Assembly: GCA_963619285.1 (NCBI GenBank)
Contig: CAVEWG010000007.1
Location: forward strand, 1-57,165
Reading direction: 5' to 3'
DNA: 57,165 nt
Source: Oscillospiraceae bacterium
GTDB taxonomy: Bacteria > Bacillota_I > Bacilli_A > Erysipelotrichales > Erysipelotrichaceae
The notes under the pieces are model-generated. The model worked only from the letters and a program-made list of their open reading frames with translations. It was not told the origin of the DNA and did no database searches. Position 1 is the first letter of the stretch, and each line of letters begins with the position of its first letter. Of this stretch, positions 1 to 38,340 are shown one piece after another. The translations under genes and the position numbers were made by a program.

Positions 1-363
1 CATCTCTTTATTTATCTTTCTTTTAGGATCAGATATAGATATAGCAGTTAAAACATTATCATAAGCATTTAAATAGTTTAATAGATTATAGTTTTGAAAT
101 ATGATTTGAACATCTTTCTTATGATAGTTATCATAGCCTATATCTTTTATATTATTACCTTTAAAAAGAATACTACCTTTCTTTGGTTCATCTAGTCCTG
201 CTAGTAGTATTAATAGAGTAGTCTTACCTGATCCTGATTCTCCTACTATTGAATAAAACTTTGATTCTTTAAAAGAATAGTTAACATTATTAAAGATAGT
301 TCTCGTATTTTGACCATCTTGATAATAATAATCAAGATCTTTTACTTCTAGTATTTCATTCAT
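1..363 (-). CDS. ABC transporter ATP-binding protein (5' part only; gene runs off the left edge)
   Basis: Own translation of the minus strand from ATG 363-361: MNEILEVKDLDYYYQDGQNTRTIFNNVNYSFKESKFYSIVGESGSGKTTLLILLAGLDEPKKGSILFKGNN...QIIFQNYNLL. Walker A GESGSGKTT and a Q-loop are present. The start overlaps the permease stop by 8 nt (ATGAATGA). Confidence 0.9.
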   Translation of the reverse strand, partial: MNEILEVKDLDYYYQDGQNTRTIFNNVNYSFKESKFYSIVGESGSGKTTLLILLAGLDEPKKGSILFKGNNIKDIGYDNYHKKDVQIIFQNYNLLNYLNAYDNVLTAISISDPKRKINKEM

Positions 364-1876
364 CTATCATGACCTCTCTTACTTTTAATGTGAATATCGA
401 TAATACACTGATGATTGTGCTTATGATTATTACTATTATTTCAATACCAGCAATCTTTAATAGTTGTGAATTATCAATGTTTATCTGTAGATTATTGATA
501 GCTTTTATACTATCTGTATAATCTAGAGTTTTGTTTTCTACTGTGAAATTATTTATTGAATCAATGTTTTCAAATAGTGTGACTAGATGCTTGCTAAGAA
601 GGGAGGAAACAACTATAGCAAGTACTAGCGCAATTAATGATACTAATATATATTGTATAGTTAGTTCTATCATTAACGATGTTTTACTTTGGCCTAAGGA
701 GGATAGTAGGCCAATTTCTTTCTTTCTTCTATTTAAGTCTAAGTTAATTATTAAGATATAAAGAATAATTGTTGCCACTAGTGCGAACTTAAACAAGAAA
801 TTAGTATTATTAGATATGGCTTCTATGTTGCCTGCAAAACTATAATATGAATCAAGTGATGTTTCATATTTTATATTCTTACCATCCATTGTGTTTAACT
901 CTTGCATATAGTTGATAAATTCTTCGATATCTTCGAAGTCCGAAAGGGTTGCGATACATGGCATAAATAGATAATAGGTATTACTGTAATCAACTTTTTT
1001 AGCTTGATCATACATTTCCATGAATAGCTTTTCAGGGATGATGGCGCCATCTTCAGCAAAATGATTGCTGTTTGGAGTGAAGTAAATTCTATCATTTAAA
1101 ATACCGATTACTTCTAAATCGTATGTTTTGTATATTTCTATATCTCCATCGCTAGGCAACATAATTGAATAAGATATATAATCACCAACATCTACTTTTT
1201 TAATTTGGCCATCAACGTATTGATAAGTTTTTGGTGTAACAACACACACTAGGCTGCCTCTTTCTATTTCGTCATCGCTAAACGTTCTTCCTTTTTGAAT
1301 TTTTGTGTAATTTATTATCGTTTCCTCTCCATCTTTGTATGTATGATAATTATATTTATAGTGAATAATTGAAAAATCGCTATTTTGGCAACTAAATAAT
1401 TTAAAGGGAGAAAAATACGGAGCATTATCGTTTTTATACTCATCGAACGTAGATATTTGTTCTATGTCATTAAAATCGCCTGTTCTATTAGCTTGTTTTA
1501 CTTCTTCATAATTACCGTAAAATGCAAGACCATATACTTCACCATAGGCCTTTATAGGAGTGATATTAGGAAAACTCAAATTTATATCCATATACTTTGG
1601 ATTAAACTTATTTTTTACATCTGTTAAATCGGCATAATATTCTTCTGAAACTGCTTGTACAGTGCTTTTATCATTTTGAAGACTTCCAAAAGTAACGTTA
1701 CTGCTTAAGGATACGAGCGATTTTACACTTTTTGTTAAACTACTTTTTACCTCATTACCGACATTTTTAAAAAAATAGCTAGAACATAATAAGCAGGAAA
1801 TAACAAACATCACCACTAGAAGTAGTGATGTTTGTCTAAGCCTATTAATGATTGATTTATAAATGCGACTAATCAT
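356..1876 (-). CDS. MacB/FtsX-type ABC transporter permease
   Basis: 506-aa ORF with an N-terminal TM helix, a ~320-aa extracytoplasmic domain and three C-terminal TM helices. FtsX-like motif RRKKEIGLLSSLGQSKTSL. ATGA overlap with the upstream ORF and overlap with the downstream ATPase. Confidence 0.85.
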   Translation of the reverse strand: MISRIYKSIINRLRQTSLLLVVMFVISCLLCSSYFFKNVGNEVKSSLTKSVKSLVSLSSNVTFGSLQNDKSTVQAVSEEYYADLTDVKNKFNPKYMDINLSFPNITPIKAYGEVYGLAFYGNYEEVKQANRTGDFNDIEQISTFDEYKNDNAPYFSPFKLFSCQNSDFSIIHYKYNYHTYKDGEETIINYTKIQKGRTFSDDEIERGSLVCVVTPKTYQYVDGQIKKVDVGDYISYSIMLPSDGDIEIYKTYDLEVIGILNDRIYFTPNSNHFAEDGAIIPEKLFMEMYDQAKKVDYSNTYYLFMPCIATLSDFEDIEEFINYMQELNTMDGKNIKYETSLDSYYSFAGNIEAISNNTNFLFKFALVATIILYILIINLDLNRRKKEIGLLSSLGQSKTSLMIELTIQYILVSLIALVLAIVVSSLLSKHLVTLFENIDSINNFTVENKTLDYTDSIKAINNLQINIDNSQLLKIAGIEIIVIIISTIISVLSIFTLKVREVMIDE

Positions 1877-2328
1877 GGTAAATAAAATGTATGCTGATGA
1901 GTTATGTATTTTGCTGATCCGTTTATTGTTTCTTTTACTCTTGATGAGACAACAATCTTTACAGAGTTTCCGGATTTAGACGTGTAATAAGTAGTGTTAA
2001 CAACGGTGACGCTATAAGTTCCATCTTGAGGACCGGAATTGTCATTTACACCAGTTGTACAACTTGATACACTAACATTAGATGCGAATGCAGATCCAGA
2101 ACTATCAACTCCGTGATAATATGTACCCGAAACTCTAAATTGTACTTGATAGCTATATGTTCCATCAGTATATGTTGTATAGTCTGCTGCGTATTTACTG
2201 AACGGTTTTGTAATACCTGCTGGCATTATAGGATAATTGTCTTCATCAGCGAATGAACTAGCACATGGTGCAACAAAAGAAATCGTCAACACTATCAAAC
2301 ATGTGCATATTGACTTGAAAAGTTTCAT
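1873..2328 (-). CDS. Small Sec-secreted beta-rich protein of unknown function (candidate secreted effector or bacteriocin-like protein)
   Basis: 151-aa ORF with signal peptide MKLFKSICTCLIVLTISFVAPCASSFA|DED. The mature part is rich in T/S/Y/V/G. SD GGAGG (complement of 2336-2340). First gene of an operon with the permease and ATPase. Confidence 0.7.
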   Translation of the reverse strand: MKLFKSICTCLIVLTISFVAPCASSFADEDNYPIMPAGITKPFSKYAADYTTYTDGTYSYQVQFRVSGTYYHGVDSSGSAFASNVSVSSCTTGVNDNSGPQDGTYSVTVVNTTYYTSKSGNSVKIVVSSRVKETINGSAKYITHQHTFYLP

Positions 2329-2421
2329 AACTTAACCTCCTTGAAACTTAATAGTTTATGTTGCAACACTTACTATTTATGTCTTAATTATAACGTTTAG
2401 CTTAATTCTTGCCTATTGACA

Positions 2422-2447
2422 AAAAGTTTATAAGGTATTAACTTTTT
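2422..2447. promoter_or_regulatory. Imperfect 26-bp palindromic box between the LysR gene and the secreted-protein operon (copy A)
   Basis: Plus strand reads AAAAGTTTATAAGGTATTAACTTTTT. By manual alignment it is 23/26 identical to the perfect palindrome at 37709-37733. Outer complementary arms are CCTAT 2412-2416 and ATAGG 2452-2456. It abuts a TTGACA hexamer (2416-2421) facing the LysR gene. Confidence 0.55.
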
Positions 2448-2468
2448 GTTCATAGGTGGGATAACAAT

Positions 2469-3365
2469 ATGAAATATGAAGATTTAGGTATTTTGTTAAC
2501 TTTAGATGAGTGTGAAAGTATCAATAAAGCCGCTAATAAACTTTTTATGTCACCAACTGGGCTAAGTAAAAAAATTAGTTCATTAGAAAAAGAACTAGGG
2601 ACATCATTGTTTAAACGTACGGCAACAGGGTGTGAACTAACAGATAATGGAAAAATAGTTTTAGAGTATACAAAAAAGATTAACGATTTAATCGATGAAT
2701 GTAAAGATAAAATAAAATCAAACGACACTTTAAAAGTAAGAGTAGGCTTTTCTTTTTTATATGATAGAGAGTTCTTTAAAATAATATTAGCAGCTAATAG
2801 ATTTATTGATAAACAATATATTTTTGAACCTGTTTCAATGGATAATGTTTTCTATGAAAAATCTGTCGAAAATCTTTTTTCATGCATAGGGAACTCGATT
2901 GATATGTTATTAGACATAGAAGGAAATAGAAATAATAAAGAGTATATTTCATTGCCTATTGCCGAAAATAGAATATGTCTTCTTGTTCCGAGAGGACACA
3001 AACTATATAAAAAAAGAAGCATTAAAATTGAAGATTTGGCAGATTTAAAAATTCTTAAATTTGCAGACGGTTTTTATGAGTCTGCTGATAAGACTGTAAA
3101 ACACATAAAAGATAATTGCAAAAATGTTGTTTTTGAAGATTTGACGGACTATTTTGATAGCGTTGGCACTTATTGTGTAAATAATAATTTGGTATTTTTA
3201 TGTATAGATTCTTATAGATCAGTAGAGCCAAATGAGAGACTAATACCTTTAGATTTTAGTGATCCTATTCCGTTTTGTATGATATATAGAAAAGACAGTC
3301 CCAAAGAATTGGTTGATATTATTAAAAGTATATATAAAATAATCAAGAGAAGAAGACGTCGTTAG
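2469..3365 (+). CDS. LysR-family transcriptional regulator
   Basis: 298 aa. N-terminal winged HTH typical of LysR (LTLDECESINKAANKLFMSPTGLSKKISSLEKELGTSLFKRT) plus a ~200-aa co-inducer-type domain. Divergent from the 2328 operon. Confidence 0.85.
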   Translation: MKYEDLGILLTLDECESINKAANKLFMSPTGLSKKISSLEKELGTSLFKRTATGCELTDNGKIVLEYTKKINDLIDECKDKIKSNDTLKVRVGFSFLYDREFFKIILAANRFIDKQYIFEPVSMDNVFYEKSVENLFSCIGNSIDMLLDIEGNRNNKEYISLPIAENRICLLVPRGHKLYKKRSIKIEDLADLKILKFADGFYESADKTVKHIKDNCKNVVFEDLTDYFDSVGTYCVNNNLVFLCIDSYRSVEPNERLIPLDFSDPIPFCMIYRKDSPKELVDIIKSIYKIIKRRRRR

Positions 3366-3434
3366 CAGGTAAAAAGCACTTCCTTCTTTACAAGAATGTT
3401 AAAATAAATAAGGTTAGAAAGAAGGAATTTATTT

Positions 3435-4436
3435 GTGATAAATGTTTATATTATTTCAGGATTTTTAGGTGCTGGCAAGACTACTTTCATCAAGAAATTA
3501 TTAAGTGAAAAGAAGTTTAAAAAAGTAATGCTTCTTGAAAATGAATTTGGTGAAGTTGGAGTAGATGGCGCTTTTTTTGATTCAGCATTAAATGTAAAAG
3601 AAATCAATAATGGTTGTATTTGTTGTTCTTTAAAAGGCGACTTCAAGTCAGCTCTAGAAGAAATTGAAGACATGGACGTAACTGACTTACTTATCGAACC
3701 ATCAGGTGTAGGTAAACTATCAGATATCTTAAATGTTGTAAAAGAAGATGAAGACTTTAGAGTTGTTTCTCATATTTGTATCGTCGATGTTAAGACATGT
3801 AAGAAGTATCATAAGAACTTCAAAGATTACTTTGATGATCAAGTAAAAGCAGCGAACGCAATTGTTTTATCACATGTTGATGTTGCTGGAGATAAGATTG
3901 AAGAAGCTAAGGAAATTGTTAAAGAAATTAATAATGATGTAACTATTATTGATAAAGCTATTGAATTCTATACAATTGATGAATTAATGGATTTAATTGT
4001 AGCTGGAGCAGATATGGGGTTCGAATCTGAAGAGGAAGAAGATGAACATTGCTGTTGCTGCTGTTGTAGTGGGGAAGGCCATGAACATCATCACCACCAT
4101 CATGACCACGATCATGAAGAAGAGGAGTTTGAATCTGATGAGGAGCATAAACATCACCACCACCATCATGATGATGAAGATGAATTGTTCAAGAATCAAA
4201 TTGTAAGAACTGATTATGTATTTACTAAGGAAGAACTTGAACAGATATTAAGTAATGTAGATGAAGATATTATTCGTATTAAGGGATATGTTAATACAAA
4301 AGAGGGTACTATGTATCTAAATTATGTATTGAATGAATATCATTTATATTTAGGCGAGAAAAGAGATAACGCTATAGTTTCAATTATTGGAACAAGTATT
4401 GATAAGAATAAGTATAAAGAGGCTTTCCATGGATAG
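3435..4436 (+). CDS. COG0523/CobW-family metallochaperone GTPase with a Cys6/His-rich insert
   Basis: GTG start with SD GAAGGAA upstream. P-loop GFLGAGKTT, CxCC metal motif GCICCSLKGD, then HCCCCCCSGEGHEHHHHHHDHDHEEEEFESDEEHKHHHHHHDDEDE and a CobW_C-like tail. Confidence 0.85.
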   Translation: MINVYIISGFLGAGKTTFIKKLLSEKKFKKVMLLENEFGEVGVDGAFFDSALNVKEINNGCICCSLKGDFKSALEEIEDMDVTDLLIEPSGVGKLSDILNVVKEDEDFRVVSHICIVDVKTCKKYHKNFKDYFDDQVKAANAIVLSHVDVAGDKIEEAKEIVKEINNDVTIIDKAIEFYTIDELMDLIVAGADMGFESEEEEDEHCCCCCCSGEGHEHHHHHHDHDHEEEEFESDEEHKHHHHHHDDEDELFKNQIVRTDYVFTKEELEQILSNVDEDIIRIKGYVNTKEGTMYLNYVLNEYHLYLGEKRDNAIVSIIGTSIDKNKYKEAFHG

Positions 4437-5337
4437 ACCAATCTATGTTGTTTCAGGGTTTATAGATTCAGGAAAGACTACTGCTATTAAAAGAACTTTA
4501 TTAGATCCTCGTTTTACTGAAAAAGAGACTACTTTAATCATTTCTTTTGAAGAAGGCGATGAAGAATATGATAAGGAATTCTTAAGTCAAACTCATAGTA
4601 GTGTAGTTTACATGGACTTTAAGGATTTTGATGCAAATAAGTTATTAGAACTAGATGACATCTATAATCCAGATCGTTTCTTTATTGAGTTTAATGGCAT
4701 GGATGATGATTCTGCCTTAATGAATATGGATTTACCTTTAGGTATGGAATATGCTCAACTTATTTGTACAATTGATGCATCTAAGTTTAAGTTGCAAGTA
4801 GGCAATATGCCTCAGTTCATGTTTAATCATGTAAATGCGTGTGAGATTATTGTCTTAAATAGATATGAAGGAGCTGACTTTAGATATCTTAGAAACAATA
4901 TCAAGAGCATGAATCAATATTGCGCTATTGGTCTAGAAGATAAAGATGGCAATATGTATGAAATGCCAAAAGATGATTTGTTTGATAAAAACAATCTAGA
5001 TATCAATGATACAGATTATGGATTGTTCTATATGGACGCTATTGATAATTATCAAAAATATAATGGTGCGCCTATTAAATTTAATGGCTTTTATCTAGAA
5101 GGCGATAAAGAAACTAAAGTAATAGGTAGATACGCTATGGTATGTTGCGCTAATGATACTCAAAGACTTGGTATGATGGTTAAGGGTTTAAAACAAGACT
5201 TAGAAGTTAATCATTATTATCATATAGAAGGTATCTTTAGAGTAAAGAATGAAAGAGGTGGCATTAGAATCTATATCGAAGGTAAGAATGCTGCTGAAAT
5301 AGAGAAACCGAAAGAGGAGTTTGTAAACTTTAACTAA
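4429..5337 (+). CDS. P-loop (CobW-like, no CxCC motif) protein fused to a DUF1980/YcgQ-like C-terminal domain
   Basis: I take ATG 4429, which overlaps the upstream stop TAG 4434-4436. N-terminus MDRPIYVVSGFIDSGKTTAIKR. The C-terminus GRYAMVCCANDTQRLGMMVKG...HIEGIFRV...EIEKPKEEFV resembles the CC-A-x-D motif region of DUF1980 (from memory of the family). Confidence 0.65.
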   Translation: MDRPIYVVSGFIDSGKTTAIKRTLLDPRFTEKETTLIISFEEGDEEYDKEFLSQTHSSVVYMDFKDFDANKLLELDDIYNPDRFFIEFNGMDDDSALMNMDLPLGMEYAQLICTIDASKFKLQVGNMPQFMFNHVNACEIIVLNRYEGADFRYLRNNIKSMNQYCAIGLEDKDGNMYEMPKDDLFDKNNLDINDTDYGLFYMDAIDNYQKYNGAPIKFNGFYLEGDKETKVIGRYAMVCCANDTQRLGMMVKGLKQDLEVNHYYHIEGIFRVKNERGGIRIYIEGKNAAEIEKPKEEFVNFN

Positions 5338-6461
5338 TGTCACTGTGGGGATTATTTTTAGAAGGACTATTATCTTTCTTGTCGCCATGTGTATTGCCAA
5401 TGGTTCCTTTATATATGTCTTATTTGGCAACAAATAAGAATAATAAAAAGATAGTTGTATTCTTGAATTCATTATTCTTTGTCTTGGGCTTAAGTGTTAT
5501 ATTTCTAATACTTGCCTTGGCTATAGATACAATAAAACCATTAATAGATGAATATTCTACTATTATTACTTTAATAAGTGGAATTATTATTATCTTATTT
5601 GGCTTACATGAAACAGGACTTATCACCATATCTGTAAACATAAGACAAAAAGATATTAGCATGGACACCACTAACATGAACTTTATTAAAGCTTTCTTGT
5701 TAGGATTCTTGTTTTCACTTGTAATATCACCATGCATTGGACCAATGTTATCAAGCGCGATACTACTTGCAGCATCTAGTAAAGTAGGTGGACTATATAT
5801 ACTTGTATATGCGCTTGGCTTACTTATTCCATTTTTTATAACAGGCTTATTTACAACATCTATTGTTTCGTTTCTTAAGAATAAAAAGAATGTCTTAAAA
5901 TATGTAGGAATTGTAGCAGGCATTATCCTTATTGTCTATGGTGGGTATATGACTGCTAATAGTTCAAAAGAGATTTTGAGCCTTAAGAATAGTACCGCAG
6001 CACCTACAAATGAAGAAGAAAGTAGTCAAACTGCTTCAAATTATTTACCAGGAAATGATTTTTATGATCAAAATGGCAATATAATTCATTTAAATGATTA
6101 TAAAGGTCAATATGTAATAATGAATTTCATTGCGACATGGTGTACTTATTGTATAAATGAGATACCAGAATATTTAGAATTTGCTAAAGCTCATGATGAT
6201 ATTAAATGTTTCTACGTAATGTCACCAAGTAGTAGTAGTGTAAGTAAAGAAGAAATAATTTCCTTTATTGAAGAAAAGGGTATAGATATAGAAGTAATAA
6301 TAGATGAAGATGATGTGCTCTATAATCTATGTAATCCAAGTGCTTTTCCAACCATGTTTGTGGCAAGTAAGGAAGCTGAGATACTTGGGTATGTATCTGG
6401 CGCCTACGATTTAGAAGGATTTAATTCAATACTTGATACTGTAAAAGAACAATATGATTAA
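5337..6461 (+). CDS. CcdA/DsbD-type thiol-disulfide transmembrane domain fused to an extracytoplasmic thioredoxin-like (TlpA/ResA-type) domain
   Basis: 374 aa. Membrane Cys motifs LSPCVLPMVP and SPCIGPML in a 6-TM region. C-terminal WCTYC thioredoxin motif. The ATG overlaps the upstream TAA by 1 nt. Confidence 0.8.
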   Translation: MSLWGLFLEGLLSFLSPCVLPMVPLYMSYLATNKNNKKIVVFLNSLFFVLGLSVIFLILALAIDTIKPLIDEYSTIITLISGIIIILFGLHETGLITISVNIRQKDISMDTTNMNFIKAFLLGFLFSLVISPCIGPMLSSAILLAASSKVGGLYILVYALGLLIPFFITGLFTTSIVSFLKNKKNVLKYVGIVAGIILIVYGGYMTANSSKEILSLKNSTAAPTNEEESSQTASNYLPGNDFYDQNGNIIHLNDYKGQYVIMNFIATWCTYCINEIPEYLEFAKAHDDIKCFYVMSPSSSSVSKEEIISFIEEKGIDIEVIIDEDDVLYNLCNPSAFPTMFVASKEAEILGYVSGAYDLEGFNSILDTVKEQYD

Positions 6462-6488
6462 TGAAAAGGAAGAGCTATACTCTTCCTT

Positions 6489-6995
6489 TTAACTAGTGAA
6501 TGTAACTGTTTTTAAAGATTCTTTGACCCAATCTTTATTTTGCGACATAGAATCATAATTGCCGTAAACAAATACACAATAATAAGTGGTGTCATTAAGA
6601 TATAATCCATCAATATTATAATATTTATTATCATTAGACGACGAAGACCTTAGCTTTTTGTTCACAATAACTGTAGCATTATCTTTATTAACTAAGACCT
6701 CAGATTCTTCTTCATTATTCATGTCGGCAATAAACTTTCCCGCCATATCTTTAAATTCAGGCACATCTGTTGAGTATTTGATTTGTTGCGCAACAAGATA
6801 TAACCCATTATCTTCATCTATAAACAAGTAATTTTCATTAGAACTATAATCTTCTATAAAATTAGTGGTTTCATCAACTTTTAGTGTTAAGTCAAAGGCA
6901 CTTATTTCTTTATTCAAATTATAATTGCTGCTTTTACAAGCGGTCCCTAATATAAGTAACAGAATAATGGATAAGATAGAAAAGGTCTTTTTCAT
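6489..6995 (-). CDS. Hypothetical lipoprotein
   Basis: 168 aa. Lipobox LILGTAC|KSS after a hydrophobic signal. SD GGAGG upstream (complement of 7006-7010). Confidence 0.7.
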   Translation of the reverse strand: MKKTFSILSIILLLILGTACKSSNYNLNKEISAFDLTLKVDETTNFIEDYSSNENYLFIDEDNGLYLVAQQIKYSTDVPEFKDMAGKFIADMNNEEESEVLVNKDNATVIVNKKLRSSSSNDNKYYNIDGLYLNDTTYYCVFVYGNYDSMSQNKDWVKESLKTVTFTS

Positions 6996-7055
6996 ATTTG
7001 TGTCCTCCTTATTTAACGATTTACTATCTTCTTTTATACATTCATAATATCAAAT

Positions 7056-7083
7056 AAAAAAAGAACTACCCATTGGATAGTTC
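7056..7083 (-). terminator. Rho-independent terminator after tuf
   Basis: Hairpin 7063-7083 (GAACTAC...ATAGTTC, with one G-U pair on the minus strand). On the minus strand it is followed by a U run (A7 at 7056-7062 on plus). Confidence 0.7.
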
Positions 7084-7111
7084 TCTATATAATTATTTAA
7101 TCAATTAGTAA

Positions 7112-8311
7112 TTACTTAATGATTTCAGTAACGTTACCAGAACCTACAGTTCTACCGCCTTCTCTAATAGAGAATTTAGTACCATTTTCAAGAGCGATAG
7201 GAGCGATTAGTTCAACAGTCATTAATACGTTATCACCAGGCATAACCATTTCCATAGCGCCACCGTTGTTATCTTTGATTTCTTCAACAACACCAGTAAC
7301 ATCTGTAGTACGGAAATAGAATTGAGGACGGTAGTTTACTACGAATGGAGTATGACGACCACCTTCTTCTTTAGTTAATACGTAAACTTGAGCCTTGAAG
7401 TTTGTATGAGGAGTAACTGAACCAGGTTTAGCAAGTACTTGTCCTCTTTCGATTTCATCACGGTTAACACCACGAAGTAATGCACCGATGTTATCGCCAG
7501 CTTCAGCTTCATCAAGTTGCTTTCTGAACATTTCAAGACCAGTAATAACTGTCTTTCTTGTTGGCTTAATACCTACGATTTCAACTTCATCATTTAGATG
7601 AGCAACACCACGTTCTACTCTACCTGTAGCAACAGTACCACGACCAGTGATAGTGAATACATCCTCTACAGACATTAAGAATGGCTTATCAGTTTCTCTT
7701 TGTGGAGATGGGATGTATGCATCAACAGCATCCATTAATTCATCAATCTTTTCTTCATAAGCTGCATCGCCTTCAAGAGCCTTAAGAGCAGAACCTCTGA
7801 TGATTGGAGCGTTATCGCCATCGAAACCATATTCAGATAATAATTCTCTTACTTCCATTTCAACTAAGTCGATTAATTCTGGATCATCAACCATATCGCA
7901 CTTGTTTAGGAATACTACGATGTAAGGTACACCAACTTGTCTAGCAAGTAAGATGTGTTCTCTTGTTTGAGGCATTGGTCCATCAGTTGCAGCAACAACT
8001 AGGATAGCACCATCCATTTGAGCAGCACCAGTAATCATGTTCTTTACATAGTCGGCATGTCCTGGGCAGTCAACGTGAGCATAGTGTCTCTTTGCAGTCT
8101 TATATTCAACGTGTGCAGTATTAATAGTGATACCTCTAGCTTTTTCTTCTGGAGCACCATCAATTTGATCATAAGCTTTAAATTCAGCTTGGCCTTTTTC
8201 TGCTAATCTCTTAGTGATAGCAGCAGTTAAAGTAGTTTTACCATGGTCAACGTGACCGATAGTACCAATATTGACATGTTCTAATGAACGGTCAAATTTT
8301 TCTTTTGCCAT
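7112..8311 (-). CDS. tuf: Elongation factor Tu
   Basis: 399 aa, [33 protein letters not shown]...[21 protein letters not shown]. Unmistakable EF-Tu. Confidence 0.99.
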
Positions 8312-8366
8312 TTGTTTTCCTCCTGTTTAGCAAATTAATTTTAAGATAAATCGCACTAATATTCAA

Positions 8367-10463
8367 TTAGTCTTTAGCGTTTTTCTTAGCGATTGATTCA
8401 GCGATGCTCTTTGGAACTTCTGAATAGTGATCCATTTGCATCATATAGTTACCACGACCTTGAGTAAATGATCTTAGGTCAGTTGCGTAACCAAACATTT
8501 CTGATAGAGGTACGTAAGCTCTAATAACGATTGCGTTTCCTCTTTCTTCTTGTTCTCTGATTTGTCCACGACGCTTAGTAACATCACCCATTACAGCACC
8601 TAAGTACTCACTTGGAGCAGTTACTTCAACATCCATGATTGGTTCAAGTAATACTGGATCACATTTTTTAGCAGCTTCTTTTAAAGCTAGAGAAGCAGCA
8701 GTCTTAAATGCCATTTCACTTGAATCGACTTCGTGGTAAGAACCATCGAATAATGTAGCTTTAATATCTACAACTGGATAACCAGCAACAAGACCATTGT
8801 TTAAGGCAGCAATTAAGCCATCTTGAGTAGGTTTAATGTATTCTCTTGGAACTGATCCACCAACAACAGCGTCAATGAATTCAAATCCTTTGCCTTCTTC
8901 ATTTGGTTCAAACTTAATCCAAACGTGACCATATTGACCTCTACCACCAGATTGTCTAACGAACTTACCTTCACAATCTGCAGCTTTTCTAATTGTTTCT
9001 CTAAAGGCAACTTGTGGAGCACCAATATTACATTCAACCTTGAATTCTCTCTTCATTCTATCAACGATGATATCTAAGTGAAGTTCACCCATACCAGCGA
9101 TAATAGTTTGACCAGTTTCTTCATCAGTATATGTTCTAAATGTTGGATCTTCTTCAGCTAACTTAGCTAAAGCAGCGTCCATCTTATCTGAGTCAGCCTT
9201 AGTCTTAGGTTCAACAGACATTTGGATAACTGGTTCAGGGAATACCATTGATTCTAGGATAATTGGGCTCTTTTCATCACACAATGTATCACCAGTAGTA
9301 GTATCCTTTAAACCTACAGCAGCAGCGATATCACCAGCGAAAACTTCTTCGATTTCAGCACGGTGGTTAGCATGCATTTGTACAAGTCTACCAAATCTTT
9401 CTTTCTTATCCTTAGTAGCATTTAATACATAACTACCTGCAGTAGCCTTACCAGAGTAAACTCTGAAATAAGTAAGTCTACCTACGAATGGGTCAGTCAT
9501 TACTTTGAATGCTAATGCAGCGAATGGTTCACTGTCGCTTGGATGTCTTGCTTCTTCTTGTCCATCTAATGTAATACCCTTAATAGAAGGTACATCAAGT
9601 GGAGAAGGTAAGTATTCGATTACTGCATCTAGTAATAATTGAATACCTTTGTTCTTATAAGCAGAACCGCAAAGTACAGGGAAGAAATCAGCACCGATAA
9701 CAGCTTTTCTGATTGTCTTCTTGATTAGATCAACTGGAATTTCTTCACCTTCAAGGTATTTTTCCATTAGATCATCATCATATTCAGATAACATTTCAAG
9801 TAGATCTGTTCTTAATAGTTCAGCTTCTTCCTTGAATTGATCTTCAATATCAGTAACAGAAATATCTGTACCTTGATCATTGTTGTACATATATTGTTTA
9901 CGTTCAACAAGATCAATAATTCCTCTAAATGTATTTTCAGCACCAATTGGCATTTGGATTGCGGCAGCCTTAGCGCCTAATCTATTGCCGATTGATTTAA
10001 CTGACATCATGAAGTCAGCACCTGTAGCATCCATCTTGTTACAGAAAACAATTCTTGGAACACCATATGTAGTAGCTTGACGCCATACTGTTTCAGTTTG
10101 AGGTTCAACACCTGCTTTAGCATCTAAAACAGTTACTGCACCATCTAATACTCTTAGAGATCTTTCAACTTCTACTGTAAAGTCAACGTGTCCTGGTGTA
10201 TCGATAATGTTAATACGATTCTTAGGGAATTGATGGTTTTGGCCAGCCCAGAAAGTAGTAGTGGCAGCACTAGTGATAGTGATACCTCTTTCTTGTTCTT
10301 GGGCCATCCAGTCCATTTGTGAAGCACCATCATGTGTTTCACCAATCTTATGAGTTTTACCAGTGAAGAAAAGAATACGTTCAGTACAAGTAGTCTTACC
10401 AGCATCGATGTGAGCCATGATACCGATATTTCTAGTATTTTCTAAGCTATACTCTCTTGCCAT
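8367..10463 (-). CDS. fusA: Elongation factor G
   Basis: 698 aa, [21 protein letters not shown]...[11 protein letters not shown]. Lies in the rpsL-rpsG-fusA-tuf order. Confidence 0.99.
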
Positions 10464-37708: not shown

Positions 37709-37733
37709 AAAAGTTAATACAGTATTAACTTTT
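37709..37733. promoter_or_regulatory. Perfect 12+1+12 palindrome upstream of the secreted-protein gene (copy B)
   Basis: AAAAGTTAATAC-A-GTATTAACTTTT, flanked by outer complementary arms CCGTATA 37698-37704 and TATACGG 37740-37746. The centre lies 107 nt upstream of ATG 37828. Copy A is about 106 nt from its ATG. Confidence 0.6.
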
Positions 37734-37827
37734 TGGATATATACGGTATAAATTGTATTTGATAAAATTTATCCATAAATAATATAAGTTGCAACAAAAC
37801 TATTAATTTATACAAGGAGAAATAAAA

Positions 37828-38340
37828 ATGAAGAGATATTGTTCGTTAGTTCTGTCAATGTTATTGGTGTTTGCTGTAACTGGTTCATGTAATGTTTTTG
37901 CAGAAGACGAAGATGATATTGAATTAACTGGTGTAGCATGCCAATATTCAATGTCTTATATTCCAACTTATTTAAAAACAAATCAAAAAGTCCCAAGTAG
38001 CACTGTAACCGGAACAAATAATACGAGTGTAGAACAAAAACAAAGTTTTACGCAATCTAGAACGGTGACTTTTACCGGAAACGTGAGTGTAAAAGCTGAA
38101 AGAGACATAATTACTGGAACGGCCGGGATATCTGCCGAAGCAGGCTATGGTGTTTCAACAACGACTAGTTATACTGTTGAACTTGTTGTTCCTGCCCACA
38201 CTACAATGCATGTTGAAATTGGATCAATGAAAACTACAACATCAGGAAATATAAAGATAATCAATACGGATTGTTCAACAACGAAATCTAGTACTAAAAG
38301 ATTAGAATATACAAGTGGTCCTTATGCAACCTGGTATTAG
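37828..38340 (+). CDS. Small Sec-secreted beta-rich protein with an amphipathic S/T-flanked hairpin (aerolysin/ETX-MTX2-like pattern; hypothesis)
   Basis: 170 aa. Signal peptide MKRYCSLVLSMLLVFAVTGSCNVFA|EDEDD. Residues ~78-120 (TVTFTGNVSVKAERDIITGTAGISAEAGYGVSTTTSYTVELV) alternate polar and apolar. SD AAGGAGA. Confidence 0.65.
   Translation: MKRYCSLVLSMLLVFAVTGSCNVFAEDEDDIELTGVACQYSMSYIPTYLKTNQKVPSSTVTGTNNTSVEQKQSFTQSRTVTFTGNVSVKAERDIITGTAGISAEAGYGVSTTTSYTVELVVPAHTTMHVEIGSMKTTTSGNIKIINTDCSTTKSSTKRLEYTSGPYATWY

Follow-up and report, generated by a model that had tools for sequence, protein, structure and literature searches.

A variable, putatively secreted orphan protein encoded with a MacB/FtsX-type ABC transporter in gut Erysipelotrichaceae

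Organization of the operon

We analyzed a 57,165-bp stretch of DNA (hereafter the window, which is an entire contig) from an uncultured gut Erysipelotrichaceae bacterium. One end of the window carries a minus-strand operon that opens with the gene for a small orphan secreted protein and continues into the genes of an ATP-binding cassette (ABC) transporter (Table 1), and we describe here evidence that this locus may pair a polymorphic toxin with a machine for self-protection or release. A preliminary description of this DNA had reported three coupled genes, encoding a signal-peptide protein, an FtsX permease with four transmembrane (TM) segments and an ABC ATPase, and their coordinates and overlaps were borne out: the small gene shares 4 nt (ATGA, 1873-1876) with the gene for permease 1, which shares 8 nt (356-363) with the ATPase gene. 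A LysR-type regulator was said to lie 140 bp away on the other strand, and the intergenic distance between the two gene starts is exactly that. The transporter had been described as one permease plus one ATPase; both are present, but a second FtsX-type permease also belongs to it, as the relatives reveal.

We compared the window with related loci (L001 to L031) and built alignments of close relatives (A1), of the wide family (A2) and of upstream regions (A3). In every relative whose contig continues past the ATPase gene, a further FtsX-type permease is encoded 3' of it, with a length of ~455 aa, or of 415 aa in the Solobacterium-like lineage, and the operon therefore consists of small protein, FtsX, ABC and FtsX. 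The start of permease 1 falls within a few bases of the small-gene stop in all 28 loci that hold a family member, as located by tblastn across all fetched loci, and the ATPase and permease 2 genes then follow wherever the contig extends. The synteny of homologues with the ABC genes, on which the preliminary description had staked its proposal, is thus kept throughout.

Table 1. Features of the window discussed in the text
Feature	Position	Strand	Evidence
ABC ATPase, N-terminal 121 aa, cut by contig end	1..363	-	ABC_tran 1e-16; Walker A GESGSGKT
Permease 1, FtsX/MacB-type, 506 aa, 4 TM	356..1876	-	Pfam and hydropathy scan
Small secreted protein gene, orphan family, 151 aa	1873..2328	-	Open reading frame (ORF) call, alignments, AlphaFold2
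Predicted Sec signal peptide, residues 1-27	2248..2328	-	Rule-based reading
Mature protein, residues 28-151 (124 aa)	1876..2247	-	AlphaFold2, Foldseek
Shine-Dalgarno AGGAGG, 7 nt before small-gene ATG (2328)	2336..2341	-	Sequence inspection
GTTGCAAC palindrome, probable 5' untranslated region	2360..2367	.	Kept in related upstream modules (A3; L017, L020)
Promoter-like site TAGGCA-17 nt-TATAAT	2387..2415	-	Consensus match; TATAAT conserved in A3
Palindromic box AAAAGTTTATAAGGTATTAACTTTT, 25 bp	2422..2446	.	Core AGTTAAT-N5-ATTAACT, contains T-N11-A
Divergent LysR-type regulator, 298 aa	2469..3365	+	HTH_1 1.8e-15
Perfect copy of palindromic box	37709..37733	.	Precedes second secreted-protein operon
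Second orphan secreted protein, 170 aa	37828..38340	+	ORF, shared leader and upstream module

The module occupies three genomic settings. It lies between cobW and glgB (L001, L004, L009-11 and L028-31), adjoins LysR-cobW (the window, L012 and L014-16) or adjoins hisS-aspS (L008 and L020, with L025-27 representing the same site minus the small gene). In L018-19 and L022-24 it sits beside a regulator with a helix-turn-helix (HTH) and a tetratricopeptide repeat (TPR)-like part, on contigs that stop short of hisS-aspS. We considered a zinc or metal role on account of the CobW/COG0523 neighbors and rejected it: the module is found at hisS-aspS too, where cobW is absent, and adjacency to cobW therefore reflects descent and lineage synteny, not function. 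Three regulator arrangements accompany the module, namely the divergent LysR, a 417-438-aa HTH+TPR-like protein or no adjacent regulator; HTH+TPR-like proteins with the size and shape of RRNPP regulators flank it in L008, L013, L018 and L022. All named sources of the family are gut bacteria, either uncultured Erysipelotrichaceae metagenome-assembled genomes (MAGs) or Solobacterium sp. The contig of L008 (CAVDDT010000025.1) is filed under Paratractidigestivibacter sp. (Actinomycetota) and is probably mis-binned, because it has 30% GC and Erysipelotrichaceae-type genes.

A MacB/FtsX-type transporter with two permeases

Permease 1 scored above both relevant Pfam cut-offs, for FtsX (PF02687, 29.2 against 25.5 bits) and for MacB_PCD (PF12704, 28 against 27); its only further matches, to ADOP and FtsX_actino, were both weak. 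Hydropathy peaks at residues 18-36, 361-379, 410-428 and 467-485 leave an outside domain of ~324 aa between TM1 and TM2, in line with the ~320 aa given in the preliminary description. Permease 2 of L001 has the same TM pattern by hydropathy and matched FtsX alone, weakly. Neither permease matched the 7-TM family TIGR01654/DUF1430 in Pfam or NCBIfam, and neither gave a phmmer match at E<=1 against the sequences of solved structures, MacB-type or otherwise.

The full-length ATPase orthologue of L001 has 224 aa, and its best NCBIfam model was TIGR03608 (L_ocin_972_ABC) at 194 bits, below the cut-off of 254.85. LolD (182 bits, cut-off 308) and FtsE (180 bits) followed and DevA was also among the top models, which places the ATPase, as a separate protein, in the clade of LolD, FtsE and the MacB nucleotide-binding domain. 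The gene tables of the examined loci contained no HlyD/MFP-family adaptor and no YknW-like or TolC-like gene. Judged by its predicted domains, the transporter is a member of the MacB/FtsX (type VII) superfamily without an adaptor. The divergent regulator matched HTH_1 at 57.1 bits and LysR_substrate at 26.3 bits, slightly below the cut-off of 28.

An orphan family of predicted secreted beta proteins

The signal peptide and cleavage site of the small protein were read by rule, from hydropathy and a conserved junction. A single hydrophobic segment spans residues 6-20 near the N terminus, P21, F26, A27 and E29 are invariant in A1, and the junction is conserved as ...FA|(D/E)E, so that cleavage probably falls after SFA27 and before D28. 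The mature part contains 18 S, 16 T, 13 Y, 13 V and 10 G (57% S/T/Y/V/G) and one Cys, a composition that agrees with the preliminary description. Throughout the wider family, conservation is highest in the signal peptide and at the start of the mature protein (FADEN-YPIMPIG); in the window the motif reads DEDNYPIMPAG and is acidic. About half of the close alleles in A1 extend beyond the position of the window's stop codon (1873-1875) by a W and 5-19 more residues (...YLPWLLEF); since the end of the small gene coincides with the beginning of permease 1 in every locus, the start of the next gene seems to be kept in these extended alleles as well.

The family is narrow. Its close relatives amount to 13 clusters in a set of 5.8e9 proteins, and a profile search of 1.84e9 cluster representatives returned 12 matches, nine of which are credible full-length members of 131-156 aa. 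In total there are about 20 clusters, all from gut Erysipelotrichaceae. Two repeat proteins, P0017 (823 aa, 11 repeats) and P0021 (409 aa, 6 repeats), owed their match to a short hairpin motif (YxxxDG...SGTY...SCTG) within low-complexity tandem repeats and were treated as not homologous. The small protein matched no family in Pfam, NCBIfam (E<=1) or PADLOC, a Pfam match to BT4734-like_N at 0.15 being attributable to chance, and the family profile retrieved nothing relevant from the sequences of the Protein Data Bank (PDB). A search of sequencing runs turned up four weak DNA holders and otherwise only host-labelled runs that were unrelated.

AlphaFold2, run with 13 sequences, modeled the protein with a predicted local distance difference test score (pLDDT) above 90 over residues 38-150, as six antiparallel strands of 13-16 residues each in a simple meander. 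On each strand one face is more conserved and more hydrophobic. Foldseek found no match to this model at E<=1e-3 in the PDB or BFVD, and the best TM-score was 0.36. Weak matches (E 0.02-0.3, TM<0.25) included the long-hairpin pore states of gasdermin, MACPF and cholesterol-dependent cytolysin (CDC) proteins, and avidins and LptE also appeared among the weak matches. Neither the lactococcin 972 (Lcn972) structure 2LGN nor any aerolysin-family entry was among the best 50 PDB matches. The two lines of search named in the preliminary description, against families and against structures, thus gave no housekeeping or other family in Pfam, NCBIfam, PADLOC or the PDB profile search, and a confident all-beta model with no significant structural match.

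Several assignments for the small protein were rejected. A lipoprotein is contradicted by the distribution of Cys22, whose 'VAPC' context is found only in the window allele and P0002 and which is Ser or Ala in other members; Pfam and the alignment revealed no lipobox, sortase motif or wall-binding domain. A catalytic Cys-His enzyme was dismissed on the grounds that Cys90, invariant in close relatives, gives way to W, I or a gap elsewhere in the family, and that no hydrolase domain is present. Phage or plasmid cargo was also rejected, as tblastn against 50,697 phage and 72,556 plasmid records was negative and IMG/VR contained no relative.

Variation and exchange of small-protein alleles

The small protein is by far the most variable product of the locus. 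Between the window and L016, CobW is 93-97% identical, the ATPase 96%, a DsbD-like protein 91% and permease 1 83% (62-82% in the outside domain and 88-100% in the TM region), while LysR falls to 66% and the small protein to 43%. L012 and L016 share LysR proteins that are 98.7% identical and small proteins that are 47% identical. The LysR of the window differs from those of L012 and L016 (66-67% identity, with 92% in the HTH and 50-60% in the effector domain) in a region where the flanking CobW is 93-98% identical; the divergent block therefore spans the regulator as well as the small gene.

Variation is also evident within one species group (L001, L004, L009, L010 and L011), in which the ATPase is 100% identical, the permeases 95-99% and the small protein 79-92%. 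The ratio of non-synonymous to synonymous substitution rates (dN/dS) in this group was 0.35-0.78 for the small gene, a range that omits the L010/L011 pair with its identical small proteins; permease 1 had values of 0.05-0.22, permease 2 had values of 0.14-0.29, and the ATPase had zero non-synonymous changes. Nucleotide divergence was 7-11% in the small gene, 3-9% in the cobW flank and 0-2% in the distal transporter, which is unusually uniform.

The tree of the mature small protein and that of permease 1 disagree. In approximately unbiased (AU) tests, on groups picked after the trees were seen, the small-protein data rejected permease clades (p=0.003 and 0.013) and the permease data rejected a small-protein clade (p=1.7e-53). 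Together, the conflicting trees and the AU tests indicate that exchange of the small-protein alleles is independent of the transporter.

Presence, absence and decay of the small gene

We found three states of the locus in a single lineage, defined by permease 1 proteins that are 91-94% identical: small gene present, transporter only, and both decayed. In L017 the small gene is intact and is followed by permease 1, in which the 1.5-kb contig ends. In L020 (a Solobacterium sp. MAG, 4085-6716) the small gene is interrupted by a TAA nonsense codon and the ATPase gene by a TAG; L021, from a second sample (2055-4428), has the same TAA in the small gene and a 136-residue ATPase call that fits the L020 stop. 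We rejected recoding as an explanation for L020: one stop is TAA and the other TAG, they fall at Leu- and Asn-type positions, and they are therefore nonsense mutations.

The transporter-only state is represented by L025-27 (5000-10420; three samples), in which no small gene lies within 7 kb. Here LysR-CmpB is inverted beside permease 1, a degenerate box precedes the permease, and LysR is truncated in L026. The transporter itself is intact and under purifying selection, with dN/dS of 0-0.05 for the ATPase and 0.14-0.41 for permease 2. By analogy, the three states mirror a producer, an immune non-producer and a loser, and the polymorphism suggests ongoing strain-level competition in the gut. A related pattern has been described for the pneumococcal scb locus, where the complete scbABC operon is missing in 27.5% of genomes and D39-like strains lack a functional bacteriocin while their immunity genes are intact (PMC11796350).

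A palindromic box links the operon to a second secreted protein

The palindromic box upstream of the operon abuts the -35 element of the small-protein promoter and ends 22 nt before the LysR start. Two copies are present in the window, where none is expected by chance. We found the box core ahead of eight further small genes (those of L001, L002, L004-6, L017, L020 and L021) and also beside the relocated LysR start in L027, a distribution that fits predicted LysR binding and autoregulation. The box is thus a probable candidate for the LysR binding site. Loci with HTH+TPR-like regulators have no AGTTAAT box (L022, 5344-5550, and the upstream regions of L008 and L018), and in its place L022 has another long inverted repeat, AAATGTGATTAA...TTAATCACATTT; regulator and operator thus appear to have been swapped as a pair.

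The second box copy precedes the gene for a 170-aa protein. The upstream regions of the 151-aa and 170-aa genes align through the box, the -10 element and GTTGCAAC, as do those of L001, L012, L016, L017 and L020, and we conclude that the two proteins are probably co-regulated; that they belong to the same system we only infer. The proteins themselves have in common only the leader and ~20 mature residues (hhalign 86%), and they are the only two genuine ORFs in the window with an N-terminal motif of the FA(D/E)(D/E) type, a third scan match being antisense to LysR. Besides the 170-aa secreted protein, whose leader reads ...NVFA|EDEDD, the second operon (37709-39643) encodes a 172-aa protein that has a single TM segment near its N terminus and a lipoprotein of 265 aa that weakly matched an OB fold.

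Relatives of the 170-aa protein amount to five clusters in all, with no family match. Its AlphaFold2 model is poor (pLDDT 50.8), and most of the best 30 Foldseek matches to that model were of the aerolysin/ETX-MTX2 type, seven of them at E<=1e-3. We found no sequence-level support for this resemblance, and it is therefore a lead only. A third orphan secreted protein, P0026, is encoded in L010 (1378-1881, 167 aa, leader ...LLVFA|NESGEDTITPIG) and has only the leader and N-terminal motif in common with the family (hhalign 62%); its gene occupies the position of a lipoprotein gene in the window (6489-6995), and no box was seen upstream of it.

A candidate toxin with a self-protection or release machine

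Taking these observations together, we tentatively favor, with somewhat less than even confidence, a locus that encodes a polymorphic secreted putative toxin and a MacB-type machine for self-protection or release. The preliminary description had proposed that the protein might be a secreted effector or bacteriocin not yet described, paired with its own transporter, and that proposal gains support from the hypervariability of the predicted protein, the discordant trees, the three states of the locus and the Lcn972-type model as the best NCBIfam match of the ATPase, although below its cut-off. Also in its favor are the HTH+TPR-like regulators beside the module in L008, L018 and L022, which recall the ComR-type regulator beside scbABC, and the aerolysin-family fold matches of the probably co-regulated 170-aa protein, though these come from a poor model. 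An orphan, hypervariable and shuffled protein with an invariant linkage to a pump and three states in one lineage fits an antagonistic protein better than an obligatory pump subunit.

In the mechanism that we propose, Sec would export the 151-aa precursor, which would be cleaved after Ala27 to release a 124-aa, near-neutral, all-beta protein. The acidic N-terminal motif (DEN-YPIMP-G) may act as a constant handle and the six-strand body as the variable, target-facing part; as a candidate for the part recognized by the pump, the constant motif would explain how alleles can be swapped without change in permease 1. The co-translated FtsX-ABC-FtsX proteins would assemble a type VII (MacB-fold) machine that performs ATP-driven mechanical work at the outer face, pushing the cell's own protein or the alleles of its neighbors off a membrane or wall target and thus conferring immunity, release or both, as YknXYZ does in the case of SDP and as others have proposed for AS-48EFGH and for orf2-orf3 of the Lcn972 locus. 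Expression would start from an activator-dependent promoter whose palindromic box is most likely bound by the adjacent LysR, and the same box would control the second secreted protein 35 kb away. Known MacB-fold machines have no transmembrane substrate path and act at the outer face by mechanotransmission, in jobs that include the expulsion of STII and dispersin, protection from the producer's own toxin (YknXYZ against SDP, and AS-48EFGH), lipoprotein extraction and the control of secreted hydrolases (PMC5985334).

Several observations weigh against the toxin interpretation. The mature proteins are near-neutral to acidic, with isoelectric points of 5.0-8.0, and most membrane-active bacteriocins are unlike such proteins in charge. 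No Lcn972 family model was matched by the secreted protein or the membrane protein, or reached at its cut-off by the ATPase. Gene-wide dN/dS of the small gene is below 1 and compatible with relaxed constraint, and in the species group its nucleotide divergence is only slightly above that of the cobW flank, so that the excess there consists mostly of amino-acid changes. The AU tests carry the post hoc choice of groups noted above. The shuffling of predicted small-protein alleles relative to permease 1 argues against allele-specific immunity, and an intact transporter without the small gene fits a pump with an independent job equally well.

That last point leads to the strongest competing explanation, in which the ABC machine is primary, as an envelope-stress or antimicrobial-peptide pump of the BceAB, YknXYZ or Vex type, and the small protein is an optional outside accessory (a catcher, lid or sensor) that varies under pressure from phage, host immunoglobulin A or variable ligands. 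Translational coupling, which suggests matched amounts of the two products, would suit such an accessory, as would the survival of an intact transporter under purifying selection where the small gene is absent, the non-cationic character of the protein, and a conserved hydrophobic strand face of the kind expected for a docking or core surface. We nevertheless consider this explanation unlikely. Co-evolution with the partner's outside domain would be expected of a subunit, and the conflicting trees speak against it; dN/dS of the small gene is three to five times that of the permeases; alleles only 43-47% identical have been swapped between strains whose neighboring genes are 93-98% identical; and no known accessory family or fold was matched in Pfam or by Foldseek.

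The small protein might alternatively be a harmless surface or matrix protein, resembling dispersin, or a membrane-held cargo that a MacB-type machine extracts or releases after Sec export and that varies because it is exposed. MacB-type systems do handle small Sec-exported beta proteins such as dispersin and STII (PMC5985334), the conservation of the signal peptide and first mature residues fits a recognition handle, and the heterodimeric permeases recall LolC/LolE. As the bacterium is monoderm, there is no outer membrane to cross, and the examined loci contain neither an adaptor nor a TolC-like gene. The protein has no lipobox, sortase motif or wall-binding domain, and genomes with the transporter only would be keeping a machine without its cargo; we regard this explanation as quite improbable. 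Least credible by a wide measure, in our view, is a signal precursor whose constant N-terminal peptide is sensed by the HTH+TPR-like regulators of RRNPP size and shape in L008, L013, L018 and L022, or by LysR, after processing or export by the ABC machine, since the 114-residue body, variable as the remainder of the protein is, folds confidently and is kept intact as a mere carrier would not need to be, known RRNPP pheromones come from short precursors and are usually C-terminal, and no LysR protein is known to sense peptides. MacB-fold machines, in addition, are not exporters across the membrane (PMC5985334).

Comparison with known systems

Returning to the toxin interpretation, the closest parallels are the Lcn972 locus (lcn972-orf2-orf3 on pBL1) and scbABC, in which a Sec-dependent, unmodified, beta-rich protein is encoded first and a large membrane protein and a small ATPase follow in one operon. 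This layout had been pointed out in the preliminary description, and the gene order holds here, with an ATPase whose best model is of the Lcn972 type. The presence or absence of the toxin gene with retention of the membrane and ATPase genes is a further point of resemblance, and scbABC is flanked by a ComR-type regulator as the module is flanked by HTH+TPR-like regulators in some loci. The differences are substantial. As already remarked in the preliminary description, the secreted protein is about twice as large and unlike Lcn972 itself, with no match to PF09683 or TIGR01653 and with 2LGN not among the listed fold matches; two 4-TM FtsX permeases take the place of one 7-TM TIGR01654/DUF1430 protein; and the ATPase falls below the TIGR03608 family cut-off. 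On these sequence comparisons the locus is analogous to lactococcin 972 loci and is neither homologous to them nor a member of their family. The membrane and ATPase genes of Lcn972/scbABC loci are taken as immunity genes, a function that has been experimentally verified for no Lcn972-type locus (PMC11796350); the whole lcn972-orf2-orf3 cluster raised the minimum inhibitory concentration of Lcn972 for L. lactis (PMC4055356).

Machines of the MacB/FtsX fold that are encoded with, or act on, the cell's own secreted toxin at the outer face are known in YknXYZ and AS-48EFGH (PMC5985334). The present loci differ from these in having no YknX-like adaptor or YknW-like gene, and in the nature of the partner, which is a folded beta protein of 13 kDa instead of a peptide. 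The Aat-dispersin and MacAB-TolC-STII systems likewise act, through a co-encoded MacB-type machine, on a small protein after its export by Sec (in the case of dispersin, a beta protein of 10 kDa), but these pumps are tripartite, belong to diderms and include an adaptor and an outer-membrane duct, whereas the bacterium considered here is monoderm and such parts are absent.

LolCDE and Vex123 share with the module the use of one ATPase with two different FtsX-type permeases, and the vex1-vex2-vex3 genes of S. pneumoniae have the same permease-ATPase-permease order. In contrast to LolCDE, no lipoprotein-sorting context is apparent here, and the similarity is at the superfamily level only. FtsEX, acting with PcsB, CwlO, RipC or EnvC, provides a further example of a MacB-fold ABC complex paired with a secreted protein that is controlled from outside. 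Here, however, the small protein has no CHAP, NlpC/P60, LytM or coiled-coil domain, its Cys is not conserved and, unlike division proteins, it is dispensable and hypervariable.

A bolder extension of the toxin interpretation, which we would call somewhat unlikely as a whole, is that the 151-aa protein founds a new family of Sec-dependent toxins with its own fold. The MacB-fold heterodimer would then act as an extractor that reads the constant handle and gives family-wide, not allele-specific, immunity, with the variable body setting the target; together with the aerolysin-like mini-protein, the system would form an antagonism regulon controlled by LysR and one case of widespread, undescribed cassettes of swappable secreted toxins with two-FtsX ABC machines in gut Firmicutes. 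If the toxin interpretation is true, abundant and uncultured Erysipelotrichaceae of the human gut would contribute a new family of protein antimicrobials, with a fold unseen in solved structures and self-protection built from MacB-type parts instead of the known Lcn972 parts. They would also offer a test bed for how mechanotransmission ABC machines shield monoderms from their own envelope-active proteins and for how toxin alleles are exchanged under a constant immunity machine.

Additional features of the related loci

Two further observations concern the flanks of the module. In L003 (3233-7753), an IS21-type transposase with IstB, a Y1 (IS200-like) transposase and a 494-aa ORF lie between cobW and the small gene. 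At the other end, directly after permease 2, L001 (7944-8069) and also L004-L006 carry a conserved 41-aa ORF that has no signal peptide.

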